A DNA stretch of 64,000 nt, taken from NCBI GenBank assembly GCA_018812525.1, contig JAHJDE010000093.1, positions 27,288-91,287 on the forward strand. Reading direction: 5' to 3'. The DNA comes from Gammaproteobacteria bacterium. Lineage in GTDB: Bacteria; Pseudomonadota; Gammaproteobacteria; Chromatiales; Chromatiaceae. The position numbers and the translations under genes were made by a program. Positions within the stretch are counted from its first letter, which is position 1. The number at the start of each line of letters is the position of its first letter. Positions 39,578-43,889 of the stretch are shown here, piece after piece. The notes under the pieces were generated by a model that searched no databases, was not told where the DNA came from, and was given only the letters and a program-made list of their open reading frames with translations.

Positions 39578-40729
39578 ATGGAGCTGCAACTGACCCTGGT
39601 GCGCCAGAAATACACCCCCTTCGGCGGGGCCGAGCGCTTCGTCAGCCGCGCCCTGGAGGCGCTGGCCGCCAAGGGGGTGGATATCCGCGTCGTCGCCCGG
39701 AGCTGGAGCGGCGAAAGCCGTTTCACCCTGGAACGCTGCGCCCCCTTCCATATCGGCCGCCTCTGGCGCGATGCCAGCTTCGGCCGGGCCGCGTGCCGGC
39801 GGCTTTCGCGGCAGACAAGTGGCTTGGTCCAATCCCACGAGCGCATCCCCTGCTGCGACATCTACCGGGCCGGCGACGGGGTCCACCGCGAATGGCTGCG
39901 GCAACGCGCCCGCCTGCGGGGCGACTGGTCGGACAGGCTGACCCGGCTCAGCCCCTATCACCGCTTCCTTCTCAGGGCCGAGGAGAGGCTCTTTGCCAGC
40001 CCCCGGCTGAAGGCGGTGATCTGCAACTCCCGCATGGTCCGCGCCGAGATCCAGGAGTGGTTCGGGCTGGCGGAGGAGCGGTTGCCGGTCATCCACAACG
40101 GGGTCGATACCGGCCGATACCATCCGAGGCTGAAGGAGGAGTACCGGGTGCCACTGCGCCGGCAATGGGGAATCGCCGAGGACGCCCCCCTCTTCCTCTT
40201 CGTCGGCTCGGGCTTCGAGCGCAAGGGCCTAGACGCGGCCCTGCGGGCCATGACCTGCCTGGATGAACCCCTCAGTCGGTTGCTGGTGGTAGGCAAGGAC
40301 AGCCGGACCCGCCATTACCGAAATTTCAGTATCCGCCTCGGATTGGAAGGGCGCGTCATCTTCGCCGGACCCCAAAAGGACGTTCGCCCTTTCTATGGCG
40401 CCGCCGATGCCTTTCTGCTGCCAACCCTTTACGACCCCTTCCCCAACGTGGTGCTGGAGGCCATGGCCTCGGGCCTGCCGGTGATCACCAGTTACAAAAG
40501 CGGTTCCCGCGACATCATCAACGAAGGCATCAACGGCTATTGTTGCGATGCGCTCAATGTCGATGCCCTGGCGGGTCGCATGACCGCCCTGCTCGATCCC
40601 GGCACCCGTGACCGCCTGGGCCGGGAGGCACGGAAGACCGTGGAACCCCTGACCCTCGACCGCATGGCCGATGAATATCTGGCGCTCTATCACAGGCTGT
40701 TGGGCCTGAACGATCAGACCTCCTTGTAG
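39578..40729 (+). CDS. glycosyltransferase family 4, WaaG (LPS core glucosyltransferase I)-like
   Basis: N-terminal KYTPFGGAERF resembles the WaaG KYFPFGGLQRDF. The C-terminal GT-B motif has PT.YDPFPNVVLEAMASGLPVI. The last 6 codons lie inside the duplicated thiC-end repeat. Confidence 0.8.
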   Translation: MELQLTLVRQKYTPFGGAERFVSRALEALAAKGVDIRVVARSWSGESRFTLERCAPFHIGRLWRDASFGRAACRRLSRQTSGLVQSHERIPCCDIYRAGDGVHREWLRQRARLRGDWSDRLTRLSPYHRFLLRAEERLFASPRLKAVICNSRMVRAEIQEWFGLAEERLPVIHNGVDTGRYHPRLKEEYRVPLRRQWGIAEDAPLFLFVGSGFERKGLDAALRAMTCLDEPLSRLLVVGKDSRTRHYRNFSIRLGLEGRVIFAGPQKDVRPFYGAADAFLLPTLYDPFPNVVLEAMASGLPVITSYKSGSRDIINEGINGYCCDALNVDALAGRMTALLDPGTRDRLGREARKTVEPLTLDRMADEYLALYHRLLGLNDQTSL

Positions 40730-40811
40730 ATCTCGGCCCCCTGGCGCCGGAACTCCTCGGACTTCTGCCGCATGCCCTCTTCCACCGATTTGGCGTAATC
40801 CCTCACGTCCT
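40711..40811 (-). pseudogene. orphan duplicate of the thiC 3' end (last 31 codons plus stop), repeat copy A
   Basis: 99/101 identical to 43789-43889. The minus strand still reads [31 protein letters not shown]-stop. No upstream thiC body. Confidence 0.9.
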
Positions 40812-41029
40812 AAATCCGTATTTCTGGTTGAAGTTTGTCTCGGACGCTGATGTCATGGCGCCGTAACCTCATGATTCTTAGATGAATACCCCGCCACAAG
40901 AGGGGCTGTGGTTACATTTTAGATGGTTCATGGATCGTGAACAAACGTACAATGTAAAGTGCCACATATGAAAGTATTGTATTGTGCGCTTAGTTCCTTC
41001 TTTTCAAATCTCATACAGAGAATAATCGC

Positions 41030-42010
41030 ATGAAACTAATAAACAGCGCGCTAATTCGTGTATCCAGAAAAATCCACTCCAATGGAGTATTGGGATACCC
41101 AGAGAAGATACTATTTGAACCAACTAACGCCTGCAACCTAAAATGTCCATTATGCCCAACAGGAATAAACGCTTTAGGCCGTCCAACGGGTCAAATGCGC
41201 ATCGATCAGTTCAGTCCCATCATTGACGAAATACAATCACGCACAAAGCATGTTGAATTTGCTGGTTATGGCGAGCCGTTTATTGCCAAGGATATTTTCA
41301 GGATGATCCGTTACGCTGCCGAAAAAGGCTTGCATACGCATGTGTACTCAAATCTGCTCATGTTAAATACAGAGGAGAAAATGGACGAATTGATTTCCTC
41401 CGGCTTGAATAGGCTGACCGTTTCTATAGATGGAGCAACACAAGAAACGTACGAAAAATACCGTATTGGAGGAAACATCGACGTATTATTTGACGTTCTT
41501 GGCAAAATTATTGAGAGGAAGAAAGTCCATAACATAAATAGTATGGAGATTGTAGGACAAATGCTCGTTACCAAGCAAAATGAGCACGAAGTACATCTGA
41601 TGAAGAAACGAACTCAGGCCTTGGGCCTTGATCGAATAATCACAAAAACAGCTAATTTAGCGTTAACAAAACCGATGGAAAATTCGTCTATTGATCCCCT
41701 TCTCACTAGCAACTTTTATCCTACACGCAATGAGTTTCAGCGTTATCGAGCCAACTCGGCAATTCTCCGGAATGGTTGCTCATGGCTATATAAAGAATGT
41801 GTAATTTTTTGGAACGGAGATGTTACCACGTGCTGCCATGATCCGTCTGGCATTAACATACTCGGCAATGTCTTCTCCTCCGGGTCGGTGTGGTCGGTAT
41901 GGAATGGCGATAACTATAAGAAACTCAGAAAACAGGTCAATCACGACATCAGTTCCGCCCACCCATTATGTTCGCAGTGTCCAGATAGATCACAAAATAT
42001 CAATTCCTGA
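41030..42010 (+). CDS. radical SAM/SPASM domain protein
   Basis: 326 aa. FEPTNACNLKCPLCPTG (CxxxCxxC), YGEPF, and a C-terminal Cys cluster CSWLYKEC...WNGDVTTCCHDPSG...CSQCPD, consistent with a SPASM/twitch auxiliary cluster domain. AT-rich codon usage compared with neighbours. Confidence 0.85.
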   Translation: MKLINSALIRVSRKIHSNGVLGYPEKILFEPTNACNLKCPLCPTGINALGRPTGQMRIDQFSPIIDEIQSRTKHVEFAGYGEPFIAKDIFRMIRYAAEKGLHTHVYSNLLMLNTEEKMDELISSGLNRLTVSIDGATQETYEKYRIGGNIDVLFDVLGKIIERKKVHNINSMEIVGQMLVTKQNEHEVHLMKKRTQALGLDRIITKTANLALTKPMENSSIDPLLTSNFYPTRNEFQRYRANSAILRNGCSWLYKECVIFWNGDVTTCCHDPSGINILGNVFSSGSVWSVWNGDNYKKLRKQVNHDISSAHPLCSQCPDRSQNINS

Positions 42011-42836: not shown

Positions 42837-43465
42837 TCTGGCTTGCGTAGCAGCACCCAAACTGTCTGGCTGTAGCGGTTCAGGTACTTCTCGCCGGGAT
42901 AGCGCAACTTGCGTAGGAAACGTTTCAAGGCCGGGCGTTGCTGTTCGGTGGCGAAGATTTCCACCACTTCCAGACCTAGACGGCTGGCATTCTCCAGAAG
43001 GAAGTCACGCGCCTGAGTGTGGCTGAAGAACCAGCGGTGGCGGTCCTGGGGCTTTTCAACCGGCAGTCCGTAGTGGGCGAAATGGCCGCGCCCTCGATCA
43101 ATGGGCTGGCGCGCATCGCGCCAGCAGTTGGGCAGGGAGACAATGACGTGGCGGCGGCTGACGCGGACCAGCTCATGGAACATGTGGTGCAGGTTTTCCA
43201 GATGCTCCAGCACCTCGATGCACAACACGCAATCTTGGGAACCATCGGGAAAGGGCAGCGCGTCCACGGAATCCAGGTTCAACACCCGGTCCGGATTGCC
43301 GGCGATGTCGACGCCGCAATACTCGCAATCCTGAAGGATTTCCCGCAGCGGAGCTTCATAGCAACCAACGTCCAGCACCTTGCCCCGTAATACCGGCGCA
43401 AACCGTCGGGCGACAAATTCGCTACGGGCCCGACGTGATGAAAAGCTGGCTTCCTCAAGTTTCAT
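42833..43465 (-). CDS. class I SAM-dependent methyltransferase
   Basis: 210 aa. VLDVGCYEAPL; D.VLCIEVLEHLENLHHMFHELVRVSRRHVIVSLPN. 4-nt convergent overlap with the previous methyltransferase. Confidence 0.8.
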   Translation of the reverse strand: MKLEEASFSSRRARSEFVARRFAPVLRGKVLDVGCYEAPLREILQDCEYCGVDIAGNPDRVLNLDSVDALPFPDGSQDCVLCIEVLEHLENLHHMFHELVRVSRRHVIVSLPNCWRDARQPIDRGRGHFAHYGLPVEKPQDRHRWFFSHTQARDFLLENASRLGLEVVEIFATEQQRPALKRFLRKLRYPGEKYLNRYSQTVWVLLRKPD

Positions 43466-43788
43466 AAAGCAGAATTCCTATGTCAGTTCAATGATTAACG
43501 GGGCGCACGTCACTATTGGACAGGCTATTGGTTCCATTTATCGATCATTAGTCAATCCCAGCTTCTTTACGCAAGAAATATACGAAAGGCGTTGGACGTG
43601 GCTATGGCCGGCATGGCAATACAATATCGTTTGAGGCCGCTACCAGCCGAGCACAAGCACACAACATCATGAATTTTCTGCCACCGACCAAATGCACTCG
43701 GCCTTGAAGCGTTTTCCGCTCAAACTGTGGCTATTCTGGCGGCAAATATTTGAGGCTGCTACAGCCAAACGTTTCACAACCCCCCCAG

Positions 43789-43889
43789 CGATCAAACCTC
43801 CTTGTAGATCTCGGCCCCCTGGCGCCGGAACTCCTCGGACTTCTGCCGCATGCCCTCTTCCACCGATTTGGCGTAATCCCTCACATCCT
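43789..43889 (-). repeat. thiC 3'-end repeat copy B (functional end of thiC)
   Basis: See 40711-40811. The two mismatches are synonymous in the thiC frame. Confidence 0.9.

Follow-up and report, generated by a model that had tools for sequence, protein, structure and literature searches.

A putative glycan cassette bounded by a duplicated thiC 3′ end between convergent waaG-like and thiC genes in a gammaproteobacterium of the Chromatiaceae

The locus described here lies in a 64,000-nucleotide stretch of a genome placed in the Chromatiaceae (Gammaproteobacteria bacterium, GenBank assembly GCA_018812525.1, contig JAHJDE010000093.1, positions 27,288 to 91,287 of the forward strand). This whole stretch is referred to as the window, and its own numbering is used throughout. 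The subject is a 2977-bp segment enclosed by two direct copies of a 101-nt sequence that represents the 3′ end of thiC. The segment is bordered on the left by a waaG-like gene of lipopolysaccharide (LPS) core type and on the right by thiC itself, the two genes converging upon it. It carries three genes, encoding a radical S-adenosylmethionine (SAM) enzyme with a SPASM domain (referred to as rSAM) and two class-I SAM methyltransferases (MT1 and MT2), together with 218 and 323 bp of non-coding DNA. The features of the locus, with guanine-plus-cytosine (GC) content and GC at third codon positions (GC3) where relevant, are as follows.

39578-40729, plus strand: waaG-like family-4 glycosyltransferase (GT4) gene, LPS core type, with Pfam Glyco_transf_4 and Glycos_transf_1
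40711-40811, no strand: repeat copy A; positions 1-19 form the functional waaG end, positions 4-101 an orphan thiC 3′ end
40811-40812, no strand: junction at which thiC-derived sequence ends and AT-rich foreign DNA begins, GC falling from 63% to 42%
40812-41029, no strand: rSAM leader of 218 bp, AT-rich, GC 42%
41030-42010, plus strand: radical SAM/SPASM enzyme of 326 aa, with Pfam Radical_SAM and SPASM, GC 42%
42039-42836, plus strand: MT1, class-I SAM methyltransferase of 265 aa, with Pfam Methyltransf_23/11, GC 60%, GC3 71%
42833-43465, minus strand: MT2, class-I SAM methyltransferase of 210 aa, recognised by Pfam, GC 59%, GC3 71%
43504-43619, plus strand: relic X, ~40 C-terminal codons from a gene for a 205-aa methyltransferase-like protein, with one frameshift (tblastx, E = 2e-12)
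43672-43788, plus strand: relic 2, the degraded remnant of an MT2-family gene's 3′ end, directed towards thiC (blastn)
43789-43889, no strand: repeat copy B, the functional thiC 3′ end (stop codon 43792-43794) and 3 nt beyond it
43792-45657, minus strand: thiC (phosphomethylpyrimidine synthase), intact, NCBIfam NF006763 at 1048 bits against a cutoff of 650
45748-45853, minus strand: thiamine pyrophosphate (TPP) riboswitch in the thiC leader, Rfam RF00059, 67.5 bits

The two copies of the repeat are identical at 99 of 101 positions (98%), a match that was reproduced in 0 of 100 shuffled sequences. The window contains no further copy, and a scan of it for a third, degenerate one returned nothing above background. 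Both differences are G in copy A and A in copy B, located at 40717/43795 (repeat position 7) and at 40807/43885 (repeat position 97), and they enclose an exact core of 89 nt. In the thiC frame both are synonymous third-position transitions (GAC/GAT and GTC/GTT), and by direct reading the one at position 7 is synonymous in the waaG frame as well (CAG/CAA). Identity ends abruptly at both edges of the repeat. Local alignments of the flanks beyond these edges do not exceed those of shuffled sequence, and so give no sign of a longer duplication that has since decayed around the repeat.

The gene content of the two copies differs in the following way. The left edge of the repeat lies 3 nt past the thiC stop codon; beyond it, copy A runs into waaG and copy B into the relic of an MT2-family gene. 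Copy A translates into the last 31 residues of ThiC, and since an in-frame TAG made by the junction sits directly upstream, it is a dead, untranslatable fragment of thiC. The last six codons of the waaG-like gene and its stop codon (40727-40729, repeat positions 17-19) also fall inside copy A. A structured RNA or terminator was considered as a reason for retention of the repeat, and folding was no better than for shuffled sequences; searches of the window against Rfam returned the TPP riboswitch and a 6S RNA only. These results bear out a preliminary description of the window, made from its letters alone, in almost everything it said of the repeat itself: the 99/101 identity, copy B as the real end of thiC, copy A as an orphan still reading the ThiC C-terminus, the synonymous nature of both mismatches, and the termination of the waaG-like gene inside copy A.

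Support for the assembled arrangement comes from unitigs and from independent records. Two Logan unitigs of run SRR27458548 cover the locus (sequences used for comparison are designated by L numbers), of which L081 is identical to window 40777-43825 and L082 has its end at 40747. Both break 30 nt away from copy-specific bases, the distance expected at k = 31 with an 89-nt repeat. Both inner junction sequences are present in these raw-read unitigs, while k = 31 leaves the two copies unphased: the 31-mers are identical for the integrated form (G...G, A...A) and for an empty site accompanied by a 3078-bp circle (G...A, A...G). In addition, three NCBI records of metagenome-assembled genomes (MAGs) contain identical WaaG, rSAM, and ThiC proteins under consecutive accessions (MBU0499764-768, MBU1656265-269, and MBU1959830-834) in the order WaaG, rSAM, two further proteins, and ThiC, so the same gene order has been assembled three times.

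An assembly artefact would require that the true chromosome is empty at this site and that a 3-kb segment of another molecule or strain sharing the 89-nt core was threaded into it as a loop. Such an error would be consistent with the equal 31-mer content of both forms, with the breaking of the Logan unitigs within the repeat, and with the origin of every source in metagenome assembly. It is nevertheless very improbable given the recurrence of the same order in three separate MAG records and the presence of both inner junctions in raw-read unitigs. Furthermore, the 3078-bp circle would carry no gene for replication or recombination, reads of at least 100 nt span the 89-nt core and allow standard assemblers to phase it, and the function of the cargo matches that of the neighbouring LPS genes.

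Comparison with relatives addresses the state of the locus before the segment was present. The lineage is uncultured, and its nearest relatives are Sedimenticolaceae-like; WaaG identity reaches at most 62% among GTDB species representatives, and ThiC is 84% identical to its counterparts in Ca. Thiodiazotropha and tubeworm symbionts. In L001 (WaaG 62%) and L084/L085 (WaaG 67%), waaG and thiC are convergent and adjacent, with nothing in between. L083 (WaaG 83%) shows exactly the overlap between waaG and the antisense thiC end that is seen in copy A, and has G at position 7. These empty or overlapping arrangements show that a convergent, overlapping waaG/thiC pair is ancestral, as had been supposed from the window alone, and that the 2977 bp are an insertion into it. 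The L083 sequence, a Logan unitig from SRR6212576, runs unbroken for 1.8 kb and then stops at repeat position 66 in thiC-end sequence (L083 1802-1848); this stop could reflect a second copy or a co-occurring relative in the sample.

The interval in which the segment resides is a variable slot. Its flanks, rsuA and the thiC-PCMT-isochorismatase genes, are conserved across the family, and what lies between them differs in every relative examined, with six different states seen for the rsuA/waaG-thiC interval. The slot is empty in L001 and L084. In a Sedimenticolaceae chromosome (L011, 11377-11885) it is occupied by a YoeB-like toxin and YefM/Phd-like antitoxin pair, named by reading the translations of two open reading frames (ORFs). 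A methyltransferase and a GT4 gene occupy it in L092 (ThiC 90%, WaaG-like 51%), DsbB in L093, and a lactonase-like gene in Ca. Thiodiazotropha. No flanking repeat was found at the occupied slots of L011, L092, L093, and Ca. Thiodiazotropha. The methyltransferase of L092 is a distant, full-length member of the MT2 family and stands directly downstream of thiC in an MT2-like orientation. Among relatives, WaaG diverges far more than ThiC (51% versus 90% identity in L092).

The inserted segment is a compositional mosaic and not a single uniform foreign block. Its left third, at least, is foreign in composition: the rSAM gene has a GC content of 42.3% (z = -4.1 relative to 49 window genes) with GC3 of 44%, and by tetranucleotide content no other 1-kb stretch of the window is as atypical as the one in which it lies (z = 4.7). 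MT1 and MT2, by comparison, are at the host mean for both GC and GC3. The AT-richness of the left third had been noticed in the preliminary description and is real, whereas a composition distinct from the flanks holds for the rSAM gene and its leader and not for the two methyltransferases. The gene content given there, a radical SAM/SPASM gene and two methyltransferases, also stands; the non-coding DNA, put at about 320 bp, instead amounts to 218 + 323 bp and includes two relics. Neither a relic nor a repeat was detected in the 218-bp rSAM leader. The C-terminal tail of MT1 is hydrophobic. MT1 and MT2 themselves converge with a 4-nt overlap (42833-42836, where CTAA carries both stop codons), forming a second overlapping convergent pair inside the cassette.

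The rSAM protein scores under every NCBIfam family cutoff, and the nearest solved structures are those of BlsE, BtrN, and GDGT synthase, which act on sugars or lipids and are matched weakly (E = 5e-9 to 1e-6). The alignments to BlsE (a cytosylglucuronate decarboxylase), BtrN, and the GDGT/macrocyclic archaeol synthase extend over the radical SAM core, and the window protein carries a SPASM domain at its C-terminus. The window enzyme differs from them in that these matches are weak and confined to the core, in addition to falling below all family cutoffs.

The two relics lie between MT2 and copy B. Relic X is recognised by identities of 21/28 and 11/13 across two frames, and its parent gene directly follows the rSAM homologue in L086-L089. 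Relic 2, whose assignment is less certain than that of relic X, resembles the MT2 gene of L094 (75% over 91 nt by blastn, E = 3e-8) and the MT2 gene of the window (71% over 104 nt). After two frameshifts it enters the repeat in the waaG frame and would stop at the TAG of repeat positions 17-19. The DNA abutting copy B thus has the appearance of a chromosomal gene that was once convergent with thiC and overlapped it, and because relic 2 reads in frame into the repeat, copy B would have come with, or always had, a convergent chromosomal neighbour.

Homologues of the cargo point to a role in surface glycans. The nearest homologue of rSAM found anywhere is 55% identical, and homologues at ~50% identity sit within glycan clusters. 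In L086-L089, the rSAM homologue is located among GT4 genes, an acetyltransferase gene, and several methyltransferase genes, including a 50% homologue of MT1. In L090, a Nitrospirae MAG, it adjoins a 54% homologue of MT2, together with genes for GT4, family-2 (GT2) and family-9 (GT9) glycosyltransferases, a sugar aminotransferase, and an epimerase. Homologues of MT2 were found at 91% identity in L094, at 68% in L026 (a Rhodocyclaceae MAG), and at 49% in L002 (Sedimenticola), following waaG in the latter two. A scan of Joint Genome Institute (JGI) metagenomes with MT2, made to find a source of the whole cassette, returned L094, in which the 91% homologue occurs without rSAM or MT1, and one 59% match, and nothing else. 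Homologues of rSAM, MT1, and MT2 are thus found together with GT4 and GT9 genes across unrelated phyla, and the window rSAM belongs to a subgroup associated with glycan clusters.

The surroundings in the window are of the same kind. They include waaA, an hldE-like gene, and genes for a UDP-glucose dehydrogenase, an O-antigen-ligase-like protein, and an MsbA-like transporter, and homologues of the waaG-like gene are named UDP-glucose:(heptosyl)LPS alpha-1,3-glucosyltransferase in JGI sources. Since the homologues lie in glycan clusters and the neighbours in the window are LPS genes, we infer by guilt by association that the segment is a surface-glycan modification module, most likely acting on the LPS core or outer core. 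The recurrence of an rSAM/SPASM and methyltransferase module in glycan clusters of distant phyla defines an uncharacterised enzyme set that may merit biochemistry.

L094 (GC 57%) provides a second orphan gene end. In it, ~60 nt of the MT1 3′ end (839-900) are kept after an intact MT2 gene (91%) and are followed by an unrelated GT9 heptosyltransferase-like gene, named by reading the ORF translation. This orphan MT1 end is the same kind of footprint as those in the window, left after the GT9 gene replaced MT1. The MT2 stop codon in L094 is mutated to CAG, which makes the protein 9 residues longer.

The contrast in composition within the cargo could also be explained by an older insertion, in which long residence has ameliorated MT1 and MT2, rSAM was added later, and gene conversion has homogenised the interior of the repeat. 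The host-like GC and GC3 of the methyltransferases beside a strongly atypical rSAM gene would agree with this, as would the placement of the mismatches at positions 7 and 97 of 101, near edges beyond the reach of conversion tracts. However, RecA acts poorly on repeats of 101 bp, and any crossover between the two copies would remove the cassette. A GC-rich donor would account equally well for the methyltransferases (MT2 is 91% identical in L094, at GC 57%, and 68% identical in the Rhodocyclaceae MAG), and the edge pattern, drawn from two variable sites only, is weak evidence. An insertion of such age is thus considered quite unlikely.

The geometry of the locus first suggested site-specific integration, and the preliminary description had taken the duplicated thiC end as the attL/attR scar of such an event. 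Searches for mobility functions gave it no support beyond that geometry. As the preliminary description had stated, integrase and transposase genes are missing: no integrase, transposase, or relaxase domain was found in the segment or in the called and scanned genes ~10 kb upstream and ~20 kb downstream, and no tRNA was found in the window. No terminal inverted repeats pair the ends of the segment, and short repeats in its non-coding ends are at chance level only. In a reconstructed attP-like region of 642 nt, arm-type or inverted repeats were not detected, shared k-mers being no more frequent than in shuffled sequences, although unknown binding motifs could escape such a search. Comparison of the segment with plasmids and phages by blastn returned a thiC match only, and neither the rSAM protein nor the repeat core matched viral contigs. 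Translated searches of the non-coding ends (tblastx and blastx) found the methyltransferase relics and no recombinase. No relic of an integrative conjugative element (ICE) or integrative mobilizable element (IME) was detected in the segment, and no second instance of the element was found at thiC or at another site in this barely sampled lineage.

The corresponding explanation is a decayed or non-autonomous integrative element whose attP mimicked the last 98 nt of thiC, such that the repeats are attL and attR and the integrase has been lost or acts in trans. In its favour, direct repeats bound foreign DNA and the target gene's end is restored, copy B completing thiC; the repeat extends from inside thiC to just past its stop codon, as for islands that integrate at the 3′ ends of tRNA and other genes; and AT-rich non-coding DNA lies inside both repeats. 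Elements that lack an integrase and keep attL and attR are moreover a described category, the cis-mobilizable elements (CIMEs), which derive from an ICE or IME that no longer has genes for integration and transfer while keeping its att sites (PMC5704250). The segment resembles CIMEs and other 3′-end genomic islands in its AT-richer cargo between direct repeats and in the restored frame of the target, and differs from them in having no integrase remnant, transfer genes, arm sites, or recurrence, and in that one of its inner flanks is the relic of a chromosomal gene.

These differences make an att-based origin unlikely. No integrase, excisionase, or relaxase, or pseudogene of one, is present in the island or in the ~10 kb upstream and ~20 kb downstream that were scanned, and the sole relics are ends of methyltransferase genes. 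Neither arm-type nor inverted repeats were detected in the would-be attP, and the segment shows no similarity to phages, plasmids, or viral contigs. No second instance and no other thiC used as attB was found, and where other genes occupy the slot they are not bounded by repeats. What adjoins copy B resembles a former chromosomal neighbour of thiC and not an attP arm. Finally, 101 bp of identity is long for an att core.

Transposition would explain the repeat as a long target-site duplication made by a transposase of DDE type or a similar enzyme. Direct repeats flanking inserted DNA are what such an event leaves, and at a distance of 2 kb there is an element that resembles a miniature inverted-repeat transposable element (MITE), is flanked by an 8-bp repeat, and has a 13-mer in common with the left edge of copy B. 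However, transposon target-site duplications range from a few to roughly a dozen bp, and no bacterial transposase is known to yield a 101-bp duplication. The segment has neither terminal inverted repeats nor a transposase gene, and its similarity to the MITE-like element is not beyond chance. The missing inverted repeats and transposase effectively exclude this explanation, which is extremely improbable.

The MITE-like element is a 159-nt sequence (45902-46060) between the thiC riboswitch and the PCMT gene, present as a single copy in the window. Its terminal inverted repeats are perfect over 21 nt (GGGTGCGTTTGAAAGTGTTGG) and 85% identical over 33 nt, and it is flanked by direct copies of CAGCGATC (45894-45901 and 46062-46069). 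The window contains the 13-mer CCCCCAGCGATCA exactly twice, at 43782-43794 (left edge of copy B) and at 46058-46070 (right end of the MITE-like element and its flank). Local alignment gave a score of 18, compared with a mean of 7.8 for shuffled sequences; the MT2 relic accounts for part of this score, and the sharing may be due to chance (about 0.02). A link between the MITE-like element and the segment was discarded on this ground, the 13-mer at the edge of copy B, possibly fortuitous, being the only tie.

The explanation preferred here, with moderate confidence, is that the 2977 bp are a horizontally acquired, non-autonomous glycan cassette, and that the repeat arose by recombination between two versions of the locus, and not as a target-site duplication or an att site. 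In version 1, waaG would overlap the end of thiC; in version 2, presumably the donor, the cassette and the older methyltransferase relics would abut the thiC end. Briefly, one homologous crossover, within either thiC or the conserved genes upstream of waaG, would have been combined with one illegitimate join between 40811 and 40812, which we infer to be the sole novel junction needed. This route would correspond to homology-facilitated illegitimate recombination (HFIR) or, equivalently, to a single crossover of a truncated, circularised fragment. Because both versions hold a thiC end, the product would hold two, one of which completes thiC while the orphan survives. The orphan would have been kept because its first 19 nt provide the last codons and stop codon of waaG.

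The edges of the repeat would acquire a simple meaning under such an exchange. The left edge would not be a junction but the limit of homology between the two versions, 3 nt past the thiC stop codon, and the right edge would be an arbitrary breakpoint, with the 101-nt length set only by the position of the illegitimate join. Products that did not keep positions 1-19 at waaG and positions 4-101 at thiC would damage one of the two genes. The faster divergence of WaaG than of ThiC makes one-sided homology plausible, the two synonymous differences are in keeping with alleles that have diverged in related strains, and a flanking repeat of 101 nt with an exact core of 89 nt is long enough for RecA pairing. 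A precedent is found in E. coli conjugation, where most recombinants were single crossovers of truncated circles, with duplications of 109-950 bp of the homologous segment (PMC3240628).

Several points weigh against an exchange between two locus versions. Direct repeats that run from a crossover point to a conserved gene end are equally expected from an integrase targeting 3′ ends. Both mismatches fall within 7 nt of the repeat ends (chance ~0.02), a placement that is not predicted. The mosaic GC content (42% for rSAM, 60% for the methyltransferases) demands that the cassette was assembled before the event, relic 2 is based on modest similarity, and microhomology at the illegitimate junction can be checked only against the donor. 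This very sparsely sampled lineage yielded no near-identical strain whose site is empty, the closest relatives having WaaG at 83% on a 1.8-kb contig that ends at repeat position 66, or ThiC at 90% with other slot content; nor did it yield the donor haplotype, which would have the cassette next to thiC and no orphan copy. L092, with its distant MT2-family gene directly downstream of thiC, and the position of relic 2 against copy B lend such a haplotype indirect support.

Exchange between two versions of the locus also places the segment among known processes. As in Campbell-type insertion-duplication and HFIR, foreign DNA stands between direct copies of a homologous chromosomal segment, with one repeat edge at the limit of homology and the other at an arbitrary breakpoint. 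The present case differs from the experimental ones in being a natural event deduced from one genome, and in that the homology is provided by the end which two overlapping convergent genes share, so that selection would have removed outcomes without a duplication. Variable surface-polysaccharide loci, such as those for O-antigen, LPS outer core, and capsule, offer a second parallel, with conserved flanks, content that differs in each relative, and low-GC genes, glycosyltransferases, and sugar-modifying enzymes among that content. In comparison with these, the slot is tiny (0-3 genes), one of the flanking genes, waaG, itself belongs to the variable set, and the exchange left a duplicated fragment of the flank instead of a clean replacement.

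A more speculative possibility is a kind of cassette that inserts reversibly without an integrase of its own, using ~100 bp of a conserved 3′ end together with RecA or a recombinase supplied in trans, passing through a 3078-bp circle and acting as an on/off switch for a glycan. This is regarded as decidedly improbable. Were it true, convergent overlapping pairs would force insertion to be duplicative and would leave 3′-end relics of successive replacements.

Taken together, the case is a new example of known processes, namely the turnover of a glycan locus, most likely through insertion-duplication by one-sided homology. It gives no sign of a self-mobile element and represents clear but ordinary gene turnover in a cell-surface polysaccharide locus; none of these findings overturns current understanding. 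Its value is as a natural example of how a small glycan-modifying cassette may enter between overlapping convergent genes while damaging neither, and as a caution that a long direct repeat at a gene 3′ end does not alone indicate an integrase. Orphan 3′-end fragments, here that of thiC, both methyltransferase relics, and that of MT1 in L094, mark past replacements at such loci and could serve as markers for reconstructing the turnover of surface-polysaccharide genes in uncultured bacteria.

Three further observations concern the rest of the window. A second low-GC patch at 54246-57397 comprises the O-antigen-ligase-like (Wzy_C) gene (GC 49%) and the MsbA-like ABC transporter gene (GC 46%), and is probably a further horizontally acquired LPS segment. 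A 6S RNA gene is located at 32456-32638 on the minus strand (Rfam RF00013, 61 bits). The long ORF at 45666-46832 consists mostly of a spurious N-terminal extension that crosses the MITE-like element; its PCMT domain begins at residue 182, and the true start of the PCMT gene is probably near 46189.

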